Source: a virus. Taken from it: a stretch of 64,000 bases of DNA. The notes under the pieces were generated by a model. It was not told the DNA's origin, did no database searches, and saw only the letters and a program-made list of their open reading frames with translations. Made by a program: the position numbers and the translations under genes. Positions 5,088 through 45,939 of the stretch are shown here, piece by piece. The stretch lies in the IMG/VR virus record IMGVR_UViG_3300031994_000034, one strand, 5' to 3'. The stretch's first letter is position 1. Every line of letters begins with the position of its first letter.

Positions 5088-5160
5088 GGTGGGGGGATTG
5101 CTCCGCCCAGAAATCAAACAAATCTATTCAAATCTAACAAAAACTCAAAAAACGGAAACG

Positions 5161-5472
5161 ATGGAAGCAATCATTCCCCTGCAAGAACTTATTGCTGATT
5201 TGTGTCAGCAACACATCAATGCACAGAAGGAGTGTCCTTGCACCTGGCACAACCAGGAAACAGGTGAGGATATCACGACTTTCCGTGGTAAGACCTATAG
5301 AAACCTTACGTTTCAGCAAGTCTGTGATTTGAAGACGTGCAGAGAATTTGGTATTTACCACAATCTTTGTCAGGCTCTGGATTATCAGGACTGGCTCATC
5401 GGTCATCCCGCCGACCGGAATGCTGAGTATTACCTGCGAGAAATGAGAAAGAACTTGAACTTGCGAAATTAA
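5161..5472 (+). CDS. hypothetical protein
   Basis: Internal ATG (MEAIIPLQ...) of track ORF 4942..5472. The upstream part is Arg/Trp-rich and overlaps ORF 4914..5087. Confidence 0.55.
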   Translation: MEAIIPLQELIADLCQQHINAQKECPCTWHNQETGEDITTFRGKTYRNLTFQQVCDLKTCREFGIYHNLCQALDYQDWLIGHPADRNAEYYLREMRKNLNLRN

Positions 5473-5486
5473 AACTCAAAATCACT

Positions 5487-7211
5487 ATGAACTTATTTAC
5501 GAATAACCCCGATTTCTATCCTACGCCCAAGGAGGTTATCGGGCAGATGATGATGGGCGAAGAAGTGACTGGCAAAATCATTCTGGAACCGAGTGCCGGC
5601 AGCGGAAACATCGTTGACTGGCTGAAGGAGAATGGCGCAGCGGAGGTGATTGCCTGCGAGAACGACCCGCATTGCAGGAAGCTATTGGCTGACAAGTGTC
5701 GGTTGGTGGCAGACGACTTCCTGACGGTGACGAGCGAGCAGGTGAGTCACGTGGATATGATTGTGATGAACCCGCCCTTCTCGAAGGGCGTCGAGCACAT
5801 CCTTCACGCTTTCGAGATTGCGCCTCCGGGATGTACGGTGATTGCGCTTTGCAACGCTGACAGTGTGAGTGAACATCACAGCTACAGCCGCAACCAAATC
5901 CTGTACGAGAACATCCAGCTCTATGGCTACACGGAGTGTCTGGGCAAGGTGTTTGAGACCGCCGAGCGCAAGACGAGCGTGGTGGTGTCGCTGGTGAAGC
6001 TCTATAAGGAGGGCACGGGCGAAGAGGAATGGCAAGACTATATTTTCAGCCAGCAGGACGAGGACGCACTGAACATGAACGAGACAGAGGGACTGGTGCA
6101 GTACAATGTGGTGCGCGAAATGGTGAACCGCTACATGAGTGCCGTGAAGATGTTCGACGAGGTGATGGAGATGACACAGCGCATCAACGAGACGGCACGT
6201 GCTACGGATGGAAAGTATGATGCACCACCTATTGAGTTTCGTGCCGTAGAGTCTCGCGATGGTCGTGCCACTACCGTCACTCGTGAGGAGTACAAGAAGC
6301 AGCTGAAGAAATACTATTGGCGCACTATCTTCCGGATGCTGAAGATGGGGAAGTACGAGACACAATCGCTGCGTGAGCAGATGAACCGCTTTGTGGAGAA
6401 ACAGGTGAACGTGCCTTTCACGATGGGTAACATCTACAGGGTGCTCGACATGATTGTGCAGACGCACGGCCAGCGTATGCACAAGGCACTGGTGGAAGCC
6501 TTCGAGAATATCTGTTCTTTCAGTGCTGAGAACTCCACGGCTGGCGAGAAGTGGAAGACGAATGCGAACTACATGGTTAACCGCAAGTTCATCATCCCCT
6601 ATATGTGCGACGGCTACGACTGGGAATATTCTGGGGAAGCCTGGAGTATGGCCCGCAAGAGGGTAGGGCGCGAGTATGTGGAAGTCAGCGGTTCCAGTGT
6701 AGAGGAGATGTACGATGTCTGCAAGGCGCTGTGCTACATGACTGGGCGCGACTACAACGAGATTCCTTCACTGCCTGGTGGGTATGGTGGCCGGCGTGTC
6801 GCATGGAACACTTGGTTTATCTGGGGCTTCTTTCGCTGCAAGGCGTTCAAGAAGGGCACTATGCACTTCGAGTTCCTGGACGAGGACGTGTGGTATAAGT
6901 TCAATGCCGAAGTTGCCAAGACAAAGGGCTGGACACTGCCCAAGAAGAGCGACGGTTGGCAGCAGTCTCCGTCGAAACTCATTCCCCGCATCGACAAGGG
7001 CGACCTATTCCGCTGCAAGAAGGATGTGAAATACAGTGATGGAACAATGGCGTACCGCAAGGATATGGTGTACCGCTCCGAACGGGAACATGGTTATTCC
7101 TTGGGTTTCATTACCAACGAGAGCGGAAACGCAAACCACGCATGGCCTATCTATCAGGACAAAGGCAAAGGTGTGGACGACTGGCGCGACTGGTTCGAGA
7201 AAGTAGCATGA
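5487..7211 (+). CDS. N6-adenine DNA methyltransferase with a long C-terminal domain
   Basis: SAM-binding motif 'ILEPSAGSGNI' and catalytic motif 'VMNPPFS' in the N-terminal 120 aa. Confidence 0.8.
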   Translation: MNLFTNNPDFYPTPKEVIGQMMMGEEVTGKIILEPSAGSGNIVDWLKENGAAEVIACENDPHCRKLLADKCRLVADDFLTVTSEQVSHVDMIVMNPPFSKGVEHILHAFEIAPPGCTVIALCNADSVSEHHSYSRNQILYENIQLYGYTECLGKVFETAERKTSVVVSLVKLYKEGTGEEEWQDYIFSQQDEDALNMNETEGLVQYNVVREMVNRYMSAVKMFDEVMEMTQRINETARATDGKYDAPPIEFRAVESRDGRATTVTREEYKKQLKKYYWRTIFRMLKMGKYETQSLREQMNRFVEKQVNVPFTMGNIYRVLDMIVQTHGQRMHKALVEAFENICSFSAENSTAGEKWKTNANYMVNRKFIIPYMCDGYDWEYSGEAWSMARKRVGREYVEVSGSSVEEMYDVCKALCYMTGRDYNEIPSLPGGYGGRRVAWNTWFIWGFFRCKAFKKGTMHFEFLDEDVWYKFNAEVAKTKGWTLPKKSDGWQQSPSKLIPRIDKGDLFRCKKDVKYSDGTMAYRKDMVYRSEREHGYSLGFITNESGNANHAWPIYQDKGKGVDDWRDWFEKVA

Positions 7212-7244
7212 TAACCTGTGAGATTTGAATCAGATTTTGTATAA

Positions 7245-7324
7245 TTTGACCTACGGTCGAAGTTCCTTACGCTCGGCAAAGCTCATGCAAGCATGGCTGT
7301 GCGCTTGCTTAATCGGAACTTTCT
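7245..7324 (+). ncRNA. structured intergenic element, copy B
   Basis: Paralog of 430..509 with the same length. Five base pairs differ by double compensatory changes. Confidence 0.45.
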
Positions 7325-7349
7325 GTGCTATCTGTGCTATCTGTGTGAC
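7323..7349 (+). repeat. 9-mer array CTGTGCTAT CTGTGCTAT CTGTGTGAC
   Basis: Read directly. Confidence 0.9.
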
Positions 7350-7368
7350 ATTAAAAACAAGAAAGAAT

Positions 7369-7746
7369 ATGACGAAGTATATTATCAGCTGCAACATTGA
7401 CAAGGATGGTTGGGGTAAATATGTTCCTGGCCAGAAATGCCGTAATGTGTCGCTACACGAACTGACTGCCTACTACTATTGGCCTGACGTAGTGAGAATG
7501 TTTTTCCTCGAAATGTGCGATCATGGGCTGCCCGACTCTATCACCTTCAAGAAGGATGGTGTAAAGATAACGGCCAAGATGACATGGAAGGCAGGGAAAG
7601 AGTGGATAGAATTCCGACCCGTGAGTGAAGAATATGCCAAGCAGGAAGGCTACATCGAAATGCGCGACATAGACTGGATTGAACATCTACGCACCGACCT
7701 GAAGAACAATACCCGTACTTTGTTGAATGGACAGCCTACAAAGTAG
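7369..7746 (+). CDS. hypothetical protein
   Basis: ATG (MTKYIISC...) within track ORF 7225..7746. The upstream part of that ORF runs through the structured element and the repeat array. Confidence 0.6.
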   Translation: MTKYIISCNIDKDGWGKYVPGQKCRNVSLHELTAYYYWPDVVRMFFLEMCDHGLPDSITFKKDGVKITAKMTWKAGKEWIEFRPVSEEYAKQEGYIEMRDIDWIEHLRTDLKNNTRTLLNGQPTK

Positions 7747-7747
7747 T

Positions 7748-7909
7748 ATGACTGGCATCTATGGCCTCACCTTGCGGGCCTCGGACGGACGGGAACGACG
7801 CACGTTGGCGTGGCTCCCCACCGAGGCTATCCGGCAGGACTTCTACGAGAAAGCCCGACGCAACGGGATAAGTATAGTTATCAATTCACAATTCACAATT
7901 CACAATTAA
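7748..7909 (+). CDS. hypothetical protein
   Basis: ATG two nt after the preceding stop. The 3' end runs into a heptamer array. Confidence 0.45.
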   Translation: MTGIYGLTLRASDGRERRTLAWLPTEAIRQDFYEKARRNGISIVINSQFTIHN

Positions 7910-7917
7910 CAATTAAA
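7883..7917 (+). repeat. heptamer array AATTCAC x3, AATTAAC, AATTAAA
   Basis: Read directly. Confidence 0.85.
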
Positions 7918-7922
7918 AGACT

Positions 7923-7982
7923 GTGATAGAGAACTGGTTTATAGCAAATTTGTTGTTACTTTGTTGGTTGAAAGGAAAGTAA
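7923..7982 (+). CDS. 19-codon hydrophobic micro-ORF, copy 1 (GTG start): VIENWFIANLLLLCWLKGK
   Basis: Paralog of 8217..8276 and 10999..11058 with the same length and the same C-terminal LCWLKGK. An in-frame stop lies 2 codons upstream, so GTG is the only available start. Confidence 0.45.
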   Translation: MIENWFIANLLLLCWLKGK

Positions 7983-8010
7983 TCGCCTGCGGCGAAGCGA
8001 AAAGTGAACA

Positions 8011-8220
8011 ATGAAAAGTAAAATCTACACCATCGACGTACAAGTGGACGGCGAATGGAAGGAATGGAACGGCATAGACTATGCCGAATCCGTGCCAGAG
8101 GAAAAGGCGGAGATGTGCAAACAGTTGCGCCTGCTGAAGCGCAACGGCTACAAGGCACGTCGCCGCTATGTGAGAGAGACAATCATGGAGTTTTTAACCG
8201 TTAAAAGAAATAGCCTATGA
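8011..8220 (+). CDS. hypothetical protein
   Basis: 69-aa ORF. Its stop overlaps the start of micro-ORF copy 2 (ATGA). Confidence 0.6.
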   Translation: MKSKIYTIDVQVDGEWKEWNGIDYAESVPEEKAEMCKQLRLLKRNGYKARRRYVRETIMEFLTVKRNSL

Positions 8221-8276
8221 TAGAAAACTGGATTATCGCAATTTTGCTCATCCTTTGTTGGTTAAAAGGCAAATAA
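8217..8276 (+). CDS. 19-codon hydrophobic micro-ORF, copy 2: MIENWIIAILLILCWLKGK
   Basis: ATG overlaps the upstream stop. Against copy 3, 12 codons differ: 10 synonymous and 2 conservative. Confidence 0.55.
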   Translation: MIENWIIAILLILCWLKGK

Positions 8277-8291
8277 AAACGAGAAACGACT

Positions 8292-8570
8292 ATGGGGTTT
8301 GTATATGCAGTGATTAAGGGGGAGCAGGCGCTGAAGGCGTACTGCTCCCGCCGCTGGAAAGGCCAGCGCATACAGTGGACGGGCGTGTTCGGACATATCG
8401 ACGAATGCACCGTGGAGACTATCTGGGCCTTTGAGCCTGACGGCCAGTGTGCCCAATACTTCATCCTCTACCTGCCGCACCCCAAGGGCGAGCACAACGA
8501 CCAGAACGCCGTGCGCCACCAGGTGTATGAGGAAATCAGACAAGGAACCATCAAACTGTTGAACGTATGA
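8292..8570 (+). CDS. hypothetical protein
   Basis: 92-aa ORF with an ATGA overlap to the next gene. Confidence 0.6.
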   Translation: MGFVYAVIKGEQALKAYCSRRWKGQRIQWTGVFGHIDECTVETIWAFEPDGQCAQYFILYLPHPKGEHNDQNAVRHQVYEEIRQGTIKLLNV

Positions 8571-8752
8571 ACATCTACAAATTCATCGACCATCTGCAGG
8601 AACGCGCAGCGGAACTGGAGCCGGAAGCCGAAATCCTCGTGGAAGGCGAGGATGGCACACTCTATGACTTCGAGATTCAGGACACGCCCGAAGCCTTCGA
8701 CGGCTTCGATACGTTCTACCCAGCCGGGCTGAAGATAGTGCTTTGCAAGTGA
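8567..8752 (+). CDS. hypothetical acidic protein
   Basis: 61-aa ORF coupled to the upstream gene. Confidence 0.55.
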   Translation: MNIYKFIDHLQERAAELEPEAEILVEGEDGTLYDFEIQDTPEAFDGFDTFYPAGLKIVLCK

Positions 8753-8831
8753 AAAATCATATTTTTTCTGTAGATAATTTAAAAAAAGCTGTATCTTTGC
8801 AGCAGCTACAACAACTTAAAATCAACCGAAT

Positions 8832-9095
8832 ATGTATAAAGTGTTTTTTCAGACCCCTGGAGAGTTCTCCCAAGCGGTTATTATGCCAGGATTCAAGCCT
8901 GCAGAGTTTTCCACTATTGAAGAAGCCAAGGCCTATATCGCTAACCAAGTGCGCGAAGAAGATAAAGTACAGGATGGAGATAACTCCACTGCCGCCACTA
9001 TCTGCTATGAAGTTTACGATGGCTCGCCCTACGACGAGGAGGGCGAAGTGACAGAGCCCGTCTATATGAGCGACGAATACTACTTTAAGCCCTAA
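8832..9095 (+). CDS. hypothetical protein
   Basis: 87-aa ORF. Confidence 0.6.
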   Translation: MYKVFFQTPGEFSQAVIMPGFKPAEFSTIEEAKAYIANQVREEDKVQDGDNSTAATICYEVYDGSPYDEEGEVTEPVYMSDEYYFKP

Positions 9096-9116
9096 GCGAA
9101 ATGTTGGGAATGTGTT

Positions 9117-9611
9117 ATGGCATACTTGAACAAGGAACAATACGCTTATCGCCGCGAAAGTGCGGCGCGTAGGAATGCCGACAATGAGGCGGTGGCCGTG
9201 GAGCACGGCATGACGGAGGAACAGGCTGGACTCATCTCCGACCTGTGCCGTCTGCGCCACGAACTGCACACAAATATGGACAGAGTGACGCGAAGCGATA
9301 CCGACTTGCGCATCAAGGCGCAACTGGTGGCGGCTAATGCTGCCATCAAGGAAAGCGGACTGACGCCCGTCCCCTGCATCCCGACGGACGAGGGCGACTA
9401 TATCGACATCGACGACATCGACCTGCTGCAGGAGATTGAGGACTGGCCGGAGTCTGGTACCGATGAATGGCAGGAGAAGTGGAATGAGGAATACTCCCGC
9501 ATCTATGATGAACTGGAGCAACTGAACTCGGACATCGAACACTATCTTGCCGATATCGACCGGCAGTATGGTACGGCATGGTGCCCGAGCGGAGCTTTGA
9601 GAATCTTCTGA
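9117..9611 (+). CDS. hypothetical protein
   Basis: 164-aa ORF. Confidence 0.65.
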   Translation: MAYLNKEQYAYRRESAARRNADNEAVAVEHGMTEEQAGLISDLCRLRHELHTNMDRVTRSDTDLRIKAQLVAANAAIKESGLTPVPCIPTDEGDYIDIDDIDLLQEIEDWPESGTDEWQEKWNEEYSRIYDELEQLNSDIEHYLADIDRQYGTAWCPSGALRIF

Positions 9612-9613
9612 CT

Positions 9614-9790
9614 ATGACGTACAAACTGTGTATGCTCTCCGAACTGGCACCGATGTCGGTGGAGAGAACCATAGAGGCGCAGAACGACCAAGAGGCTATT
9701 GCTGAAGCTGAGACTTTTTCCGATGCAGTGCCGGTCCTTGTCTGCATGGACCTCTATGATGAGAATAACAAATTAGTGAAACATTGGTAA
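9614..9790 (+). CDS. hypothetical protein
   Basis: ATG 3 nt after the preceding stop, within track ORF 9578..9790. Confidence 0.5.
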   Translation: MTYKLCMLSELAPMSVERTIEAQNDQEAIAEAETFSDAVPVLVCMDLYDENNKLVKHW

Positions 9791-9819
9791 AACGCATACG
9801 AATATGACAGAGAACCGGA

Positions 9820-9936
9820 TTGTCGCGCAACCACATCTCTCGCATCGAGACGGGTAAGTACAATGTGGGCTTTGACATCCTTGTGAAGGTGGCCAAGGCA
9901 CTGGATATGGAGCTGGATTTTATCAGAACTGATTAA
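9820..9936 (+). pseudogene. remnant of an XRE-family HTH gene (C-terminal part only)
   Basis: The frame reads '(L)SRNHISRIETGKYNVGFDILVKVAKALDMELDFIRTD', which is the recognition-helix-to-end part of an XRE HTH. The N-terminal helices are replaced by a copy of the micro-ORF 5' sequence, and there is no ATG. Confidence 0.5.
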
Positions 9937-9956
9937 CAATTAAAAGCTACACAACT

Positions 9957-10976
9957 ATGGCAACAAAATCAACAATGCAGTTAGAAGCACTGCGCAATAC
10001 CGAGAACAGAAAGCACGCAACGAAAAGCGTATGCGATATGTTGGTGAAGCTGTCGCAAGACGGCTATGTCCGTACAGGACACTATACAGGCAGCGGTCGC
10101 CACACCAAGGCCGTTGACCAGACACTGGAGGTGGTGATGTCCCTGAAGCGCCTGCAGATAAGTCACGCCGAGGGCAACGACGCGCCGCGTGGCGGCGTGG
10201 CCGGCAACTATGTGGTGCTGACCAGCGAGGCACTGATGAAGCTCATAGGCAAGACCGACACCTATAGGCAGCTGCGCAAGCAGGCCGGCGCGGAGTGGAA
10301 GTACATCGTGCAGAAACCCTACACCGACAAAGAACTGCTGGAGCTGGCCCGGCAGAAAGTGGAGTGGGTGACCGACGAATACAAGGACGACCCCGACGGC
10401 CGCTACTGGCTGAACGTATATCATGGAGCCGAGGTCTATGAGCTGATTATCCGGCACGGACGCATCGTAGGCAGCATCTGCGAAGGCTTCCATCCTACCA
10501 TCCCCCGTGCCGACAACCGCATATCGCCGAGCCGTGAGAGGTGGATTGACGCACTGAAGGAGGCAGTCTGCGAACACATCGGCAGCGACTGGCATTTTGC
10601 CAAGGCCGACGGCTCTGGCACGGCCTTCTTCCTGCGCGAAGCCCCGCAGGATAAGGAACTGCAGAAGTACGTCAAGGAGTACATGGTACCCTCTATGGAC
10701 TGGCGCGACGGCGGCTACCATACGAACTACGAGATAAAGGGCACCGAGCAGAAGCCCCGCTATCTGCTGCAGCCCTCTGAGCAGCAGTCCGGCGGCTGGG
10801 TATGCACCGACACGGAGAACGGCATCGTCTGCCGCTTCCAGGCCCACCGCTTCAACGAGACCTCCAAGATGACCTTCCTGGAGGACGTGCCCCAGCCCGA
10901 TGCCCTGCAGATAGCCCGCCTGATGCGGGAGATGGGCGACTGGCTGGCCGAGCATCACGGAGATATTTTGTTTTAA
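9957..10976 (+). CDS. hypothetical protein
   Basis: 339-aa ORF preceded by the AAAGCTACA-type leader. Confidence 0.75.
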   Translation: MATKSTMQLEALRNTENRKHATKSVCDMLVKLSQDGYVRTGHYTGSGRHTKAVDQTLEVVMSLKRLQISHAEGNDAPRGGVAGNYVVLTSEALMKLIGKTDTYRQLRKQAGAEWKYIVQKPYTDKELLELARQKVEWVTDEYKDDPDGRYWLNVYHGAEVYELIIRHGRIVGSICEGFHPTIPRADNRISPSRERWIDALKEAVCEHIGSDWHFAKADGSGTAFFLREAPQDKELQKYVKEYMVPSMDWRDGGYHTNYEIKGTEQKPRYLLQPSEQQSGGWVCTDTENGIVCRFQAHRFNETSKMTFLEDVPQPDALQIARLMREMGDWLAEHHGDILF

Positions 10977-10998
10977 GAAACTAAAAAACGCATACGAA

Positions 10999-11058
10999 TA
11001 TGACAGAGAACTGGATTATCGCCATCCTCCTTTTGCTTTGCTGGCTGAAGGGAAAGTA
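10999..11058 (+). CDS. 19-codon hydrophobic micro-ORF, copy 3: MTENWIIAILLLLCWLKGK
   Basis: See copy 2. It is followed by a terminator hairpin. Confidence 0.55.
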
Positions 11059-11067
11059 AACAGAAAA

Positions 11068-11090
11068 AGCCCCGTGGGTGGCACGGGGCT
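11068..11090 (+). terminator. stem-loop terminator candidate
   Basis: 9-bp stem agccccgtg / cacggggct with a 5-nt loop. The T tract is weak. Confidence 0.45.
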
Positions 11091-11170
11091 TAATCCACAG
11101 CCCAAGGGCTGACGAATGACAATCCATCGGATTGCGCTGCGAAGGTACGACAATCCGCTGGATGTTGCAA

Positions 11171-11210
11171 GAAAATGTCAAAAAAGGAAAGAAAATGTCG
11201 AAAAAGGAAA
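11171..11210 (+). repeat. 20-bp tandem duplication (gaaaatgtcRaaaaaggaaa x2)
   Basis: Read directly. One mismatch. It ends 4 nt before ATG 11215. Confidence 0.85.
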
Positions 11211-11214
11211 GATT

Positions 11215-11490
11215 ATGAAACTAAGTGTACAAGAAACCGAGAAGCGCTTCGGCCATGAGGTAGTCAAGCAACTAACCGACATGCAGGCTGAGCCTACGGG
11301 ACGTCTCATCTATCCCGCATTTGAACCGCAACACAAAGGCATGAGCGAATACGTTGCCTGCCTGTCTGTTGACGGTGGCAGGCTGGATGCGTATTACTTC
11401 CAGCCTGAAGATGCCGACGAATGGGAGTATGGTGAGATGAACGGCATCGAGTATGGCGGCATTGAATACATAGAGTTTGTAGAAGACTGA
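11215..11490 (+). CDS. hypothetical protein
   Basis: ATG (MKLSVQETEK...) within track ORF 11116..11490. Confidence 0.6.
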   Translation: MKLSVQETEKRFGHEVVKQLTDMQAEPTGRLIYPAFEPQHKGMSEYVACLSVDGGRLDAYYFQPEDADEWEYGEMNGIEYGGIEYIEFVED

Positions 11491-11498
11491 AAACTGAT

Positions 11499-11681
11499 AT
11501 GAAGAAAGCAAATAATCGGACCTGCGCCGTATGCGGCAAGGTCATCACCAGCGGCTATGTCTGGGACGGAACGGACACGTTCTGTTCCGACGAGTGCGCC
11601 GCCAAAGTCTTCGACGGCGACGAGGGTTGCGTCGATATCTTGATAGATGACGGGCGAATAGTGTGGGAGGATAAGTTTTGA
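11499..11681 (+). CDS. small zinc-ribbon-like protein
   Basis: CAVCGK...18 aa...CSDEC pattern. Confidence 0.55.
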   Translation: MKKANNRTCAVCGKVITSGYVWDGTDTFCSDECAAKVFDGDEGCVDILIDDGRIVWEDKF

Positions 11682-11791
11682 GGATTCTTGCGACGGAATC
11701 GCAAGACACACTACCTATATATAACGTGCGTGTGCGCGCGTAAATGAACACTATTGTTGCCATAAGCATCATAGTGATTTTGAGTTTTGGG

Positions 11792-11823
11792 CCGCTGCGT
11801 CGGGATGACGCGGCGGTTTTTTT
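11792..11823 (+). terminator. rho-independent terminator
   Basis: 10-bp GC stem (ccgctgcgtc / gacgcggcgg), 5-nt loop, then a T7 run. Confidence 0.75.
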
Positions 11824-11924
11824 GTAAAATTCGATAATTCCTTCAAACATTATTGCGATAAATCAAATTTAATTTATTATATTTGCATCCGCTCTTGCCT
11901 TTTTACAAAATAAATTATAGTGAT

Positions 11925-12296: not shown

Positions 12297-12917
12297 TCAC
12301 TTTTTGTTTGATGGTTTCCCATATTCCCCCATTGCTTCGGCGGCGATAGAGAGTTGGGAATCCTGGAAGTGCTCGATATTGACGTTGATGCGGCGGAGCA
12401 GGGTGTTATGCGCCTGCAGGAGGTCGCTGTATTTCTTTGTGAGGTCATCGGCCTGCTGTCGAGTGGCTCGCATGAGCTGGTTGTGGTCGGTTATCTGCTC
12501 GCGGAGGGCTGCAATCAGATCATCTTTGGTAGAGAGTTCACGCTTCAAGGACATGATGGTTTCGTCCTTGGCGGCAAGAGCGGCGTTGATGAGACTGCTC
12601 ATGTCGGGGGTGTCTGTCTCGCCTGTCGTGGTCGTTTGAGACTGATTGCTGCTAATCGGTGCTAAGTCGGCAACGAGCATTATGTCGCTATCACCGCGAA
12701 GCCATGCCGGATTGAAGACGTTGCCAAAGGCTGAGTTCACCTTTCTTAGCGTTTCTTGTTTTACTCTTTTGATTTTGCCATTTAGCGCACGGGAGATGGT
12801 GGCCTCAAATAGGCCTGACTTTCGCGCAACATCTGCCTGGTTGTGAGCTTCGGTGTTGGCGTAAATCCAATCAAGCATCTGCTTGAAGATTTCATTTTCT
12901 TTTGTTTGCATAGCCAT
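12297..12917 (-). CDS. HTH (XRE/CI-like) transcriptional regulator with a C-terminal coiled coil
   Basis: N-terminal 'QADVARKSGLFEATISRALNGK' HTH followed by 'NPAWLRGDSDIML'. This is the only - strand gene in the early block and is divergent from 13171..13365. Confidence 0.7.
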   Translation of the reverse strand: MAMQTKENEIFKQMLDWIYANTEAHNQADVARKSGLFEATISRALNGKIKRVKQETLRKVNSAFGNVFNPAWLRGDSDIMLVADLAPISSNQSQTTTTGETDTPDMSSLINAALAAKDETIMSLKRELSTKDDLIAALREQITDHNQLMRATRQQADDLTKKYSDLLQAHNTLLRRINVNIEHFQDSQLSIAAEAMGEYGKPSNKK

Positions 12918-26560: not shown

Positions 26561-27163
26561 ATGTCGAGAAACTTCATACACAGGATTGACTTGCACCTAA
26601 AGGCAGGCAAGAGCGGACGATGGGAGGTCAGGCCGTTCACCGTCAGCGAACAGGACACGAAATGGTCTAAAGTGCGCTGCATCATCAACGGGTGCAGCGA
26701 GAGGGCGCTCGAAGCTGGCGACTACTGGATGCTGACAAAGGACGGCTTGCTGTATATGTCGAATACACCAGCCGAGGTGTGCGACCATGCCGACTTTATC
26801 GGAATGGCATCTGGCAGCGTGCTCATTGCGGGACTGGGACTGGGCATGGTGGTGCAGGCATTGCTCGACCGTGGGCAGTGCCGGCGCATCGTAGTGGTAG
26901 AGAAATCGCAAGACGTAATCAACCTTGTGGCACCGTGCTATCAGGACCCGCGCGTGGAGATTGTCTGCGAAGACATTTTTCTGTACCGCCCGACGGAGCA
27001 TTTCGACTATGCGTGGTTCGACATCTGGCCAGACATCAGCGGCGACAACTATCCCGAGATGAAGCGTCTGCACCGTCGTTTTGCCCGCAGCGTGACGTTC
27101 CGATTCAGTTGGTGCCGCAAGGAGGCTCGCAAGCGGTACAATAGCGATATGCACGAGGCATAA
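26561..27163 (+). CDS. class I SAM-dependent methyltransferase-like protein
   Basis: Rossmann motif 'VLIAGLGLGMV' followed by 'VVVEKS' and 'CEDIF'. Substrate unknown. Confidence 0.55.
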   Translation: MSRNFIHRIDLHLKAGKSGRWEVRPFTVSEQDTKWSKVRCIINGCSERALEAGDYWMLTKDGLLYMSNTPAEVCDHADFIGMASGSVLIAGLGLGMVVQALLDRGQCRRIVVVEKSQDVINLVAPCYQDPRVEIVCEDIFLYRPTEHFDYAWFDIWPDISGDNYPEMKRLHRRFARSVTFRFSWCRKEARKRYNSDMHEA

Positions 27164-44598: not shown

Positions 44599-45939
44599 AT
44601 GTCCATATCCACCTGGCACAACACCCTCGCCGCCCTCCCAGCTGCCGTACACGACAGTTACATGGCCAAGACCGCTCGCCAGCGCTCTAAGCGCGAGGTG
44701 CAGCGCGTCATGGCCGATGTGGACACCTTCTGCCGCCAGAAACAAACAGAACTAAAAAACAATACCTACCGCGTAGGCCCCTACCGCCACTTCCGCCTTA
44801 CGGACAAGAAGAAAGAGCGAGACATCAGCGTACTCCCCTACTCCGACCGCTGCGTCCAGAACGCCGTCAAGGATGCCATACAGCCACTGCTCCTCCGACA
44901 GATGACCGATGATATGCTGGGAGGGCTCCCGGAACGCGGTGTTTTAAGCGCAGTGACGAGATATTCTGTCGTGAAAAAAATACGGCGACTGATGAACGAC
45001 AAATCGCTAAGATACTACCTGCAGGGCGACATCCGAAAGTTCTACGACTCCATCGACAACGTAGTGGCCATGAGGCTCATCGAGCAAAAAGTCAAGGACC
45101 AACGGACACGCGCGCTCATCAGGCAGCACATCTTCAACCAGAAGCGGCTGGCCATCGGCGACCCCTTCTCTCACCTCATCGCCAACCTCGTCATGTCCTG
45201 CGTCATCCGTAAGGCAAAAGCCAAGTATGGTCGTCGCATCCACCTCATCAACTTCGCAGACGACTTCATAGCCTTCGCCAAGGACAAAGCCACCCTTACC
45301 GCCCTCCGCAGCGACATGAACCGCTGGGCCAAAACCCTCCGCCTCCACTACAAGCCCCTCTACATCCGCCCCGTCACCCATCCCCACTGTGCCTGGCGGT
45401 TTTCCCGCCCGGCCCCCATCACCTTCTGCGGCTACCGCTTCGGCCCCGCCTACGTCCACCTCACCCGCCGCACCAAGCTCCGCTACATCCGCACCCGTCA
45501 TCGCCGCCGCTCCCTCGCCAGCTACCAAGGCATCCTCGCCGTGGCCGACACACGCCACCTCCGTCACCTCATCCAGTACAACGACAATCACCATATGACA
45601 GAGAAAATACGTCGCCCCTTCGCGGGGCGCCCCATGAAGATTGAAACACTCGAAGGCATACCACACACCATCGTCAATGTCGTCGAGAAACCGTCGCGAC
45701 AGCGCGACAGCGAAACCTACATGCACGTTCAGGCTATCGCCGACGGACTCGGACTCATCGTCTATTCCACCGCAGCATCCAAGATATGCGCCTACCTCCG
45801 TGCTGCATACCGGCCAGGAATGCCGATGCCAGACATGCGCATCGTCCACGACTGGAGCGGATTCTACTACGAAGGCACCGTCTATACCGACGCCGAGGAA
45901 GAAGAAATGATACGCAAGCAATACAACATACCCAAGTAA
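44599..45939 (+). CDS. DGR reverse transcriptase
   Basis: RT motifs 'ERDISVLPYSDRCVQNAV', 'YYLQGDIRKFYDSID', 'LAIGDPFSHLIANL' (the DGR-type [ILV]GxxxSQ block, here ending in SH), the catalytic 'INFADDFIAF', and 'FCGYRF'. Confidence 0.9.
   Translation: MSISTWHNTLAALPAAVHDSYMAKTARQRSKREVQRVMADVDTFCRQKQTELKNNTYRVGPYRHFRLTDKKKERDISVLPYSDRCVQNAVKDAIQPLLLRQMTDDMLGGLPERGVLSAVTRYSVVKKIRRLMNDKSLRYYLQGDIRKFYDSIDNVVAMRLIEQKVKDQRTRALIRQHIFNQKRLAIGDPFSHLIANLVMSCVIRKAKAKYGRRIHLINFADDFIAFAKDKATLTALRSDMNRWAKTLRLHYKPLYIRPVTHPHCAWRFSRPAPITFCGYRFGPAYVHLTRRTKLRYIRTRHRRRSLASYQGILAVADTRHLRHLIQYNDNHHMTEKIRRPFAGRPMKIETLEGIPHTIVNVVEKPSRQRDSETYMHVQAIADGLGLIVYSTAASKICAYLRAAYRPGMPMPDMRIVHDWSGFYYEGTVYTDAEEEEMIRKQYNIPK

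Follow-up and report, generated by a model that had tools for sequence, protein, structure and literature searches.

Between positions 7923 and 11059 of the virus record IMGVR_UViG_3300031994_000034, in a region of Prevotella phage type, three very short open reading frames (ORFs) encode nearly the same hydrophobic peptide, which raises the question of whether they are genes and what their products might do. The window analyzed here is the whole stretch of this viral DNA (64 kb), and the loci compared with it are referred to as relatives and numbered with the prefix L.

Micro-ORF copies and their surroundings

The following features were recorded at the locus:

7923–7982, plus strand: micro-ORF copy 1, GTG start, peptide VIENWFIANLLLLCWLKGK followed by a stop codon
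7983–7995, plus strand: small hairpin TCGCC-TGC-GGCGA, then GAAAAGTGAA, directly past the copy 1 stop
8011–8220, plus strand: 69-aa ORF, its TGA stop overlapping the copy 2 ATG (ATGA)
8217–8276, plus strand: micro-ORF copy 2, ATG start, peptide MIENWIIAILLILCWLKGK followed by a stop codon
9804–9826, plus strand: 5′ remnant of a fourth micro-ORF (MTENRIVA...); 9789–9826 and 10985–11022 share 95% identity
11000–11059, plus strand: micro-ORF copy 3, peptide MTENWIIAILLLLCWLKGK followed by a stop codon
11067–11091, no strand assigned: 10-bp G+C-rich hairpin, 8 nt past the copy 3 stop, with a T-run on the minus strand only

A sequence-only reading of this DNA had reported three 19-codon ORFs with near-identical peptides and mostly synonymous DNA differences. 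Pairwise comparison of the copies agreed with this, and the coordinates of copies 1 and 2 were correct, whereas copy 3 had been placed at 10999–11058, one base off, which yields an out-of-frame translation. Copy 1 is the most divergent copy: its core carries a polar Asn at position 9, its codons 9–14 (TTGTTGTTACTTTG) match the L003-type allele, and relatives L020–L022 have no copy at its exact slot. Because of the GTG start and the Asn in the core, copy 1 may be in decay, and it is possibly the weakest copy. The fourth-copy remnant, overlooked in the sequence-only reading, has W5 replaced by R and runs directly into the 3′ half of an XRE-type HTH gene. The remnant forms the left edge of a segment of ~1.2 kb (the HTH fragment and a 339-aa ORFan) that is missing in L009 according to the alignment.

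The copies sit in same-strand operons, with starts located −4 to +23 nt from the upstream stop. Copy 1 starts 13 nt past the stop of ORF 7727–7909 and ends 28 nt before the next start codon. The ATGA overlap at copy 2, described earlier, was confirmed and is also kept (−4) in L001, L003, and L015; the 69-aa ORF is the conserved upstream partner of copy 2 in relatives, and the gene downstream begins at 8292, 15 nt after the copy 2 stop. Copy 3 starts 23 nt past the stop of the 339-aa ORF (9957–10976), and the next start codon follows 155 nt behind its end. Across the family, downstream distances range from 6 to 267 nt, with differing genes. The three copies cease to resemble each other at the ORF borders (68-nt repeat family).

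The 20 nt upstream of each start contain 9–11 A, a content reached by only 1.6–6.4% of the 20-mers in the window; neighboring genes have similar A-rich leaders. A Bacteroidetes −7 promoter motif is present at 8792 on the plus strand, ahead of the operon whose last gene is copy 3. The setting consists of arrays of tiny same-strand accessory genes, namely early/accessory ORFans beside methyltransferases and a repressor-like gene, and no recurrent functional neighbor of family members was found.

The hairpin behind copy 1 has only a weak minus-strand terminator-like score, and this 3′ flank is common to the micro-ORFs (short forms) in L015 and L013/L023, where the loop is GAA. The sequence-only reading had also placed a terminator hairpin behind copy 3. 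The 10-bp hairpin is there, but the plus-strand sequence behind it is TAATCC, and the hairpin scores as a minus-strand terminator because the T-run lies on that strand. It opens a conserved structured 3′ flank common to L018, L026, L028, and L029, and the region between copy 3 and the gene at 11215 contains several hairpins with alternative pairings.

Selection on the reading frame

Copies 2 and 3 differ at 15 of 54 nucleotides (3/1/11 at codon positions 1/2/3). As noted earlier from the sequence, this affects 12 codons, ten of them synonymously and two conservatively (I/T and I/L). When the same number of substitutions was placed at random, as many residues were kept between copies 1 and 2 in 0.035% of 20,000 trials, and the residue retention seen for copies 1 and 3 and for copies 2 and 3 was matched in 0 of 20,000 trials (P ≤ 3.5e-4 for the pairwise tests of the three window copies). 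The degenerate codon pattern of the peptide had three matches in the window, compared to 0 expected (100 shuffles).

The homolog sample comprised 19 distinct 60-nt DNA sequences from metagenomes, including 12 short forms. The short forms had a pS of 0.66, a pN of 0.09, and a dN/dS of 0.062 (NG86), and dN/dS for all forms was 0.081; these ratios are only approximate, because synonymous sites are near saturation. Variable columns at codon positions 1/2/3 numbered 7/2/15 in the short forms and 9/2/15 in all forms, so 15 of 17–18 third positions were variable as opposed to two second positions. Among the six frames, pN/pS was lowest in the plus frame (0.18 vs. 0.46–11.8 in the others).

A frame-agnostic nhmmer scan returned only in-frame full-length copies and two truncated remnants (window 9804–9826 and L020 10506–10532). 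No frameshifts were seen in full-length copies among the homologs found, most short forms of which were retrieved with a motif-demanding pattern that favors intact copies, a bias only partly offset by the scan and by loci fetched via neighbor or long-form proteins. The start codon of the short forms invariably precedes E-N-W by exactly two codons. Start and stop codons are never missing, save in one stop-loss allele (L003/L006/L016/L021), whose 20 extra C-terminal residues are mostly polar and basic, compatible with a cytoplasmic C-terminus. RNAalifold gave 0 consensus pairs for the homologs, and single-sequence folding z-scores were −0.25 for copy 1 and +1.2 for copy 2. The proposal that purifying selection acts on a translated peptide and not on a DNA or RNA repeat thus held up, with a dN/dS of ~0.06–0.08 across the 19 homologous sequences, the plus frame as the best frame, and neither frame-breaking full-length copies nor conserved RNA pairing.

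A helix shared with longer proteins

The 17-residue core ENW..A.LL.L[C/A]WLKGK recurs as the C-terminal helix in a family of unannotated 41–98 aa proteins. The family was taken as P0001–P0089 minus the unrelated long proteins P0020 and P0023 (87 clusters/members), with 24 representatives at 50% identity and 80 clusters at 90% identity. Its sequences derive from Prevotella MAGs, rumen/gut metagenomes, and IMG/VR contigs, and its carriers are Prevotella/Prevotellaceae phages and mobile islands. In the long form, a lipoprotein-type signal peptide with a lipobox is followed by an acidic linker (9–15 residues) and the helix (N-W-x-x-A-I-x-x-L-L-[A/C]-W-L-K-G-(G)-K/R). A lipobox precedes the helix in 76 of the 87 members, linkers contain on average 3.2 acidic and 0 basic residues, and the Asn is invariant (87/87). 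The short-form profile HMM matched the C-terminus of 48–50 aa ORFs, and the tail HMM gave 37.8–39.6 bits on the window copies (E about 1e-10). This sequence similarity makes the 19-aa peptide a homolog of the C-terminal helix in the long proteins.

The AF2 model of one long member (mean pLDDT 67, moderate) has two helices, at residues 8–20 and 29–46, and the second (18 residues) spans the entire region equivalent to the short peptide. Both this model and the homology to the signal-peptide family agree with the single hydrophobic helix with a basic end that had been suggested earlier. At 12 residues (W5–L16), the hydrophobic run is shorter than a usual membrane span, although the 19-aa IbsC is counted as spanning the membrane (PMC12648545). 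Substitutions are hydrophobic-for-hydrophobic (I/L/V/F) along the full length of the helix, which has no polar face except at its ends. Relative to the long family, signal peptide, lipobox Cys, and acidic linker are all missing from the window copies; their start codon lies two codons ahead of E-N-W, and helix position 12 is Cys instead of Ala. Cys14 is common to the short forms, and Ala14 occurs in almost all long forms of this lineage.

Short and long forms swap at the same genomic positions at two loci. Behind a 245-aa gene and a common upstream flank, the long form occurs in L031 and the short form in L026; the downstream flank of L026 is that of L029, which also has a long form. After a 70-aa gene (9578–9790 in the window), the long form (48 aa) is found in L020–L022 and the short form in L009; in the window, this slot is occupied by the remnant and an insertion, with copy 3 behind them. 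At one of the two loci, the forms differ by a clean ~86-nt indel that takes out both signal peptide and linker. Relatives carry 2–4 family members where the sequence suffices, and the window has three short forms and zero long forms. Helix motif and slots aside, the long family and the window copies have their phage lineage and type of accessory-gene array in common. The short form is most parsimoniously derived by deletion, because long forms occur much more widely and are the only ones in more distant relatives. The three ORFs are thus probably real protein-coding micro-genes, bare-helix paralogs of this small membrane protein family that lack its signal peptide.

Alternative explanations and possible role

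The helix might oligomerize into small pores that time lysis or cut off host energy, with the N-terminal segment of the long form as a delivery or delay device. This sub-hypothesis on function is compatible with the micro-gene explanation, and we consider it rather unlikely. The two-segment and bare second-segment forms parallel pinholin S21 68 of phage 21, also a small phage membrane protein, whose second segment keeps the core activity while the first adds regulation: pores, albeit transient ones, require TMD2 and form with TMD2 alone, and the timing of activation is set by the N-terminus (bioRxiv 10.1101/2021.04.20.440580). Membrane depolarization is known for many small hydrophobic peptides. 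However, the pinholin is not homologous to the window peptides, has 68 aa and a polar pore-lining face, and belongs to a lysis cassette. No endolysin, spanin, or other lysis gene was recognized near any family member, the neighbors being the early/accessory genes described above; 19 aa is far below known holin sizes, and the helix lacks a polar face except at its ends. Unimolecular spanins (e.g., T1 gp11) combine an N-terminal lipoprotein signal with a C-terminal transmembrane helix. In this they resemble only the long form; a lipoprotein signal is absent from the window copies. To bridge the periplasm, spanins require a domain of ~100 residues, and the linker here has 9–15.

It is improbable that each micro-ORF encodes a membrane-depolarizing type I toxin (Ibs/Sib-like) with translation checked by a cis-encoded antisense sRNA; the sequence-only reading had likened the peptide to type I toxins in size and character. 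The length of 19 aa, hydrophobicity, polar/basic C-terminus, and multi-copy state fit the criteria applied in the search by Fozo et al. 2010 (PMC2887945) and the 19-aa IbsC/IbsA of E. coli and Salmonella, which likewise are nearly all one hydrophobic helix, occur as several paralogs per genome, and escape gene callers. Prophages often carry type I toxins, and a convergent RNA ending at the copy 3 hairpin, which reads as an opposite-strand terminator, is conceivable. But in ibs-sib and zor-orz, similarity extends beyond the coding region (PMC2887945), whereas among the window copies it ends with the ORF. Copies 1 and 2 are tightly flanked by same-strand genes (−4/13 nt upstream, 15/28 nt downstream), leaving no room for an own promoter, a 5′ UTR, or an antisense gene. 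No TAnnTTTG −7 motif, the Bacteroidetes-type promoter signal, was found on the minus strand from 5137 to 11870, and apart from the copy 3 hairpin this strand showed no significant folding. Rfam matches were far below threshold, and the peptides matched no toxin family and have no sequence similarity to IbsC/IbsA. Neither the antisense sRNA gene nor the own promoter of ibs-sib was found at these operon-embedded copies, and homologs with a lipoprotein signal peptide do not have a toxin layout. According to PMC12390103, type I systems have so far been described only in Proteobacteria, Firmicutes, and Tenericutes; Bacteroidota are not among these phyla.

We also give little credence to the short forms being functionless 3′ relics of the long gene that look conserved through youth or gene conversion by long forms. 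The wider spread of the long form, its exclusive presence in distant relatives, the degraded look of copy 1, and the existence of remnants would fit such an origin. The short forms are nevertheless old, judging by their 12 distinct sequences and near-saturated synonymous sites at low dN/dS; every one starts at the same point before E-N-W, and the window contains no long form. Because Cys14 is found in short forms and Ala14 in almost all long forms, the short forms evolve as a lineage of their own, unconverted by long forms.

A leader peptide or uORF, whose translation, or ribosome stalling on it, controls transcription termination or translation of the next gene (8011, 8292, 11215), was the other function suggested earlier, and it is very improbable. 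The small distances behind copies 1 and 2, the hairpin behind copy 1, and the alternative pairings ahead of the 11215 gene would suit it, and arrest peptides can be conserved in amino acids. Downstream partners and distances vary, however, both in the window (28, 15, and 155 nt) and across the family. In relatives the same slots are filled by the 48–50 aa signal-peptide form, a lipoprotein precursor that is implausible as a leader; the I/L/V/F exchanges along the whole helix are typical of membrane segments, no conserved RNA pairs involve the ORF, and the copy 3 hairpin has no T-run on the plus strand. That the conserved unit is DNA (a recombination linker or a protein-binding site between cassettes) or structured RNA with an incidental ORF is hardly credible: the copies do lie at cassette junctions, the cassettes around them differ between relatives, and the two remnants place rearrangement breakpoints inside copies, but a non-coding repeat is largely refuted by the codon-position pattern, the peptide persists despite near-saturated synonymous sites, no stretch of identity between copies is long enough for homologous recombination to be efficient, RNAalifold found no pairs, and start and stop codons are kept in all but the stop-loss allele.

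As micro-genes for bare-helix peptides, the three ORFs would be co-transcribed with their neighbors, and their translation would rely on termination-reinitiation or on A-rich, SD-independent initiation. The peptide would insert in the cytoplasmic membrane with its N-terminus (E-N) periplasmic and its KGK end cytoplasmic, a topology predicted because the signal peptide and acidic linker of the long form impose it on the same helix, and the positive-inside rule fits. The near-invariant N4, W5, A8, I9, L12, L13, W15, L16, K17, and G18 may mediate helix-helix packing with the peptide itself or with a host membrane protein, and multiple copies may provide dosage or slightly different specificities. 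As a putative role, we tentatively suggest an early or accessory envelope function, for example in excluding superinfecting phages or in modulating a host membrane protein. T5 Llp, TP-J34 Ltp, and P22 SieA are also small phage envelope proteins, some of them lipoproteins, that are encoded among accessory genes and expressed early or from prophages (PMC3952083, PMC10883804, bioRxiv 10.64898/2026.03.26.714494). Llp, Ltp, and SieA have no sequence similarity to the window peptides, and their folded extramembrane domains bind the receptor or the injection apparatus, whereas here no more than about 10–15 residues (long form) or 4 residues (short form) are exposed. "Membrane-modulating micropeptide", as proposed from the sequence, remains the best generic description. 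What is new is the identity of the peptide, which corresponds to the helix at the C-terminus of a widespread but unstudied mini-lipoprotein (~50 residues), and the bare-helix peptides make up a new family of a known kind.

Coding selection on the micro-ORFs

Three 60-nt ORFs encoding nearly the same peptide, which had been picked out by a sequence-only reading, were all present in the window. The third one had been placed one base off, at 10999-11058, where it translates out of frame, and it is listed here at its corrected position together with the remnant of a fourth copy.

Micro-ORF copies in the window
7923-7982, + strand: copy 1, GTG start, peptide VIENWFIANLLLLCWLKGK
8217-8276, + strand: copy 2, peptide MIENWIIAILLILCWLKGK
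11000-11059, + strand: copy 3, peptide MTENWIIAILLLLCWLKGK
9804-9826: 5' remnant of a fourth copy (identity between 9789-9826 and 10985-11022, 95%)

The peptide has 19 aa in total, with an apolar run of 12 consecutive residues (W5-L16), short for a membrane span, and a KGK end. Its closest analogs in size and character are IbsC and IbsA; the Kyte-Doolittle mean of the core was 2.1-3.0 in the copies vs 3.6 in IbsC. Copy 1 alone might be decaying, having a GTG start and an Asn in the core.

Between copies, 11-15 of the 54 internal nucleotides differed, yet only 2-3 of the 18 residues did. The 12 codon differences between copies 2 and 3 were, as originally counted, ten synonymous changes plus I/T and I/L, and the nucleotide differences of this pair were distributed 3/1/11 over codon positions 1/2/3. 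When the same number of substitutions was placed at random, residues were preserved equally well in 0.035% of trials for copies 1 and 2, and in 0 of 20,000 trials each for the pairs 1-3 and 2-3. A degenerate codon pattern for the peptide gave three matches in the window and none in 100 shuffles.

The homolog set comprised 19 distinct 60-nt sequences, 12 short forms (the bare-helix peptide) and seven tails of a longer relative described below, and was a modest, partly pattern-biased sample from one phage lineage. Variable columns by codon position were 7/2/15 for short forms and 9/2/15 for all forms. With pS of 0.66 in both sets and pN of 0.09 (short forms) and 0.12 (all forms), dN/dS (Nei-Gojobori, JC-corrected) was 0.062 and 0.081, respectively, ratios that are approximate because synonymous sites are near saturation. 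The proposed purifying selection on a translated peptide was thus borne out. The frame as read had the lowest pN/pS of the six, 0.18 vs 0.46-11.8 elsewhere. Antisense ORFs over the copies (7913-8182, 8201-8464 and 10981-11181, − strand) were considered and rejected, having pN/pS of 0.46-11.8 and no conserved peptide.

Since pattern-based discovery favours intact copies, a frame-agnostic nhmmer run was added over all fetched loci. All full-length matches were in frame with start and stop, except for one allele in which TAA had become CAA and the ORF was lengthened to 39 aa; the defective copies were two truncations only. RNAalifold found zero conserved base pairs within the ORF, and on either strand the copy 1 and copy 2 regions folded no more stably than shuffles. 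Neither frame-breaking substitutions nor an RNA structure behind the synonymous changes was found, and both the distribution of variation over codon positions and the absence of conserved pairing contradict a DNA or RNA repeat. The comparisons demonstrate that the ORFs are coding and under purifying selection, with several copies embedded in operons. Genes of 19 codons escape standard annotation, and here the comparative evidence alone makes a very strong case for a real gene.

The stop-loss allele (4634-4693 in contig L003, also in L006, L016 and L021) runs out of frame into the next gene. The tail of its 39-aa product (MTENWFIAILLLLCWMKGKQTRKDYGTTDLRSNSRRAGI) is basic and polar, is tolerated, and fits the predicted cytoplasmic C-terminus of the peptide. 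No exact match to the 39-aa protein was present in a collection of 15 billion proteins.

Short and long forms of one family

An HMM of the short peptide also matched the C-terminus of a 48-aa ORF in related contigs (MKESIISLCVVIFLVILCVASCSAGGEDSTGENWILAIILLLAWLKGK), and recovered a 21-aa variant and a 3' remnant. Relatives with these two carried 3-4 family elements per genome; relatives with enough sequence had 2-4 family members each, and the 64-kb window had three short forms, one remnant and no long form.

Further family elements in related contigs
L020, 5760-5825 region (also L002, L003, L006, L016, L021, L022): 21-aa divergent member MVENWILAIIMILAAMKCGVK, upstream of a homolog of the 55-60-aa gene
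L020, 10455-10532: 3' remnant (...LLCWLKGK and stop), farther downstream than the 21-aa member

The family of the 48-aa protein is unnamed and lacks a model in Pfam, NCBIfam and PHROGs. It comprised seven close clusters, 24 representatives at 50% identity and 80 clusters at 90%, all "hypothetical". In total, 87 members of 41-98 aa were counted (P0001-P0089 minus the unrelated long proteins P0020 and P0023). Their architecture was uniform, typically MKKNI...LLLTSC followed by D[ST]GG[ED]DDGT.GNWF.AI..LLAWLKGGK. At least 76 of the 87 had a lipobox upstream of the helix, and the linker was 9-15 residues long with a mean of 3.2 acidic and 0 basic residues. The Asn was invariant (87/87), and W, A, I, LL, W, L, K and G were nearly so. 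The helix motif of the long family, N-W-x-x-A-I-x-x-L-L-[A/C]-W-L-K-G, was present in the window copies, which scored 37.8-39.6 bits (E ~1e-10) with a tail-only HMM. AlphaFold2 predicted two helices (residues 8-20 and 29-46, mean pLDDT 67), the second spanning exactly the segment equivalent to the 19-aa peptide.

By sequence, the closest true relatives of the micro-ORFs are this unnamed long family. The window copies start two codons before E-N-W and have no lipoprotein signal, lipobox Cys or acidic linker, and because the signal and lipobox are missing they were taken as truncated paralogs rather than full members. The short peptide itself was rejected as a lipoprotein (LLLLC as lipobox), as it has no basic N-region and Leu at -1 breaks the lipobox rule; the long form was ruled out as a spanin by its linker length.

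Searches of Pfam, NCBIfam, PHROGs and PDB gave no significant match, and the weak ones (E 0.05-1), including those of the PDB profile search, were to signal peptides of Bacteroidota and other lipoproteins only. Full-text literature searches for the peptide strings gave no match, and the long family was likewise absent from the searchable literature.

In seven members of 73-85 aa (P0017, P0018, P0025, P0064, P0083, P0084, P0088), the lipoprotein signal was preceded by an additional hydrophobic segment at the N-terminus and a loop rich in Arg. P0089 (42 aa), with a polar N-terminal extension in place of a signal peptide, is an independent signal-less variant. The long form P0081 (L039 6754-6903, L040 2130-2279) lay in an apparently chromosomal island, flanked by HU-HIG, DUF4248 and DUF6575 genes on one side and a complete type I restriction-modification system (HsdM, HsdS, HsdR) on the other, so the family is not confined to phage contigs.

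Short and long forms were interchangeable as alleles at the same genomic slots. After a 245-aa gene, the form was 50 aa long in L031 and 19 aa long in L026; the upstream flanks of the two aligned base for base, and the downstream flank of L026 matched that of L029, itself with a long form. L031 and L026 differed by one clean indel of ~86 nt: signal peptide and linker are gone from L026, where an ATG stands two codons ahead of E-N-W. After a 70-aa gene (window 9578-9790), the long form was found in L020-L022 and the short form in L009; in the window, this slot held the 5' remnant, a 1.2-kb insertion consisting of half an XRE-type HTH gene and a 339-aa ORFan, and then copy 3.

The segment 9789-10984 is missing in L009, and its edges are a 38-nt direct repeat (9789-9826 and 10985-11022, 95%). 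Within it, 9820-9936 is the 3' half of the XRE-type HTH gene, fused to the truncated micro-ORF (...ISRIETGKYNVGFDILVKVAKALDMELDFI), and the 339-aa ORFan (9957-10976) had no Pfam or PHROG match. The segment has the appearance of a gained cassette or of a scar left by rearrangement, a breakpoint lying within a micro-ORF.

The distant relatives (L032-L040) had long forms only, so that a derived short form is most parsimonious. The short form is not a recent wreck: short forms were as diverged from each other at synonymous sites as from long forms, kept the start codon, and had Cys at helix position 12, vs Ala in almost all long forms of that lineage. Relic pseudogenes are contradicted by this, the short forms being old and selectively maintained. 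The alleles amount to a natural domain-deletion experiment, pointing to the C-terminal helix as the functional core, and these naturally occurring bare-helix alleles are the unusual and useful feature of the family.

Genomic setting and expression

Neighbours were annotated with Pfam and PHROGs over 40 window ORFs. They were mostly ORFans, and because almost all are uncharacterised, the context gives little help on function. The element had three or more DNA methyltransferase genes, and nothing in the 64 kb was recognised as a structural, lysis or integrase gene or as a tRNA.

Annotated genes of the window
5487-7211: DNA methyltransferase, DUF4942-type, 574 aa, 35-40% identical to Flavobacteriia phage proteins
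21878-23677: DNA methyltransferase
26561-27163: DNA methyltransferase
44599-45939: reverse transcriptase
12297-12917, − strand: HTH repressor-like gene

Among 50,697 phage records, neither megablast with 10 kb nor sensitive blastn with the copy 3 region turned up a real match, and no relatives of the gene at 11215 were found in IMG/VR. Codon-pattern scans located the micro-ORF in three IMG/VR viral contigs, a Prevotellaceae MAG (UBA4301) and several metagenome contigs, and one long-form relative was annotated from a Prevotella sp. MAG. As relatives occur in such MAGs, the window was treated as a Prevotellaceae phage or phage-like element, the host assignment resting on MAG titles.

All copies lay on the strand of their neighbours. 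Measured from the stop before each, copy 2 starts at -4 nt, copy 1 at +13 nt and copy 3 at +23 nt; copy 2 does overlap the stop codon of the 69-aa ORF 8011-8220 as ATGA, as had been noted. The 20 nt before each start contained 9-11 A, a count reached by 1.6-6.4% of window 20-mers, and leaders of neighbouring genes were similarly A-rich. Initiation regions that are SD-less and A-rich have been described for Bacteroidota, and the leaders of the copies are of that kind. The peptide would be made by translational coupling or reinitiation. An exact Bacteroidetes -7 motif (TATCTTTG) was found at 8792, before the operon ending in copy 3.

A 15-nt sequence (ATTAACAATTAAAAG) is repeated exactly, at 7905 and at 9932, and in both places ends a few bases before a start (GTG 7923 of copy 1, ATG 9957). 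The 3' end of ORF 7727-7909 consists of a tandem array of ~3.5 units of 8 nt (CAATTCAC, 7878-7909).

The 3' flank of copy 3 (11060-11210) is conserved, highly structured and common to L018, L026 (twice), L028 and L029. Its first element is the hairpin previously taken as a terminator of copy 3 (11067-11091), which is real, with the terminator T-run on the minus strand. It is followed by a second hairpin (cagcccaagggctg, ~11100-11113; cagaccgaagtctg in relatives, one compensatory pair), two CAATCC-nnn-GGAT(T)G palindromes (~11121 and ~11152) that can pair mutually over 13 bp, and two copies of a 20-nt direct repeat (AAGAAAATGTC[A/G]AAAAAGGA, 11169-11208) just before ATG 11215. Two further hairpins present in relatives are deleted in the window. 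The module may act as an array of operators, as an attenuator or as an sRNA. Rfam gave two sRNA matches at the first hairpin (E ~0.2, bits below half the gathering threshold), which were taken as noise.

Predicted membrane role and its alternatives

The peptide is predicted to insert into the cytoplasmic membrane, its E-N end facing out and its KGK end facing in; in the long form, such an orientation would be imposed by a signal that is cleavable, a linker that is acidic and a C-terminus that is basic. The near-invariant conservation along the helix suggests specific helix-helix packing rather than generic hydrophobicity, and the partner of the helix would be either another copy of itself or a membrane protein of the host. 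As a possible role, an envelope function of early or accessory kind is tentatively put forward, e.g. superinfection exclusion or modulation of a host membrane protein. The superinfection-exclusion lipoproteins Llp, Cor and Ltp showed no sequence or domain homology to the family (Pfam, NCBIfam, PHROGs, PDB).

The main alternative, a pore-forming or depolarising role, would be distinctly improbable in our judgement. It would be analogous to pinholin S21 68, in which TMD2 alone forms transient pores and the N-terminal segment times activation (bioRxiv 10.1101/2021.04.20.440580). Against a holin or pinholin, lysis-category PHROG and Pfam annotations were absent from the 40 window ORFs, as were such Pfam annotations around the relatives; a novel lysin may be present among the mostly ORFan neighbours.

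An Ibs/Sib-like toxin-antitoxin module of type I, a kind raised in the sequence-only reading, agrees with the peptide and fails at the locus. Searches for such toxins look for small (<70 aa) hydrophobic peptides that have a single transmembrane helix and end in polar or charged residues (PMC2887945), which the 19-aa peptide matches in size, hydrophobicity (W5-L16) and KGK end. However, similarity stops at the ORF (the repeat family is 68 nt, ORF plus 8 nt), and starts -4, +13 and +23 nt from a same-strand stop leave no room for a 5' UTR or for promoters, whether own or antisense; no motif of an own promoter was seen either. For an antisense gene, no -7 motif (TAnnTTTG) was found on the minus strand of 5137-11870, minus-strand folds of the copy 1 and copy 2 regions were no better than shuffles (z = -0.12 and -0.17), and Rfam was sub-threshold over the copy 3 hairpin, whose minus-strand terminator leaves a small opening for this reading.

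The other early proposal, a regulatory leader peptide or attenuator uORF, is contradicted: the downstream genes vary, at distances of 6-267 nt across the family, the ORF has no conserved pairing, and its slots are interchangeable with a lipoprotein precursor, the 48-50 aa signal-peptide protein.

Small single-pass membrane proteins of phages and prophages are well known, and this family is new within that kind; neither the peptide nor the long family was present in the curated libraries (Pfam, NCBIfam, PHROGs). Through it, the short gene is linked to mini membrane proteins of Prevotella phages and mobile islands that form 87 clusters or more. The genus Prevotella is dominant in rumen and gut, and to our knowledge the biology of its phages is almost unknown. 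If the helix has a host membrane protein as its target, the family would be a Bacteroidota and phage example of small-membrane-protein regulators, which are known mainly from enterobacteria. The peptide can be synthesised chemically, so membrane insertion, oligomerisation, toxicity, partner binding and phage exclusion are directly assayable.

A bolder reading, which we consider improbable, is that the 19-residue peptide is the smallest active unit of a new class of Bacteroidota phage membrane effectors, in which the bare helix alone binds and inhibits a host inner-membrane machine or forms a conductance and the lipoprotein signal of the long form is an optional delivery device. If true, it would be, as far as we know, the smallest phage gene product shown to be both functional and under selection, and, since a phage deploys it, a toxin-like micropeptide with no need of an RNA antitoxin. 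Repeated duplication, to 3-4 copies per genome, and the allelic exchange between long and short forms would in that case be the mark of an arms race in which a membrane target is contested.
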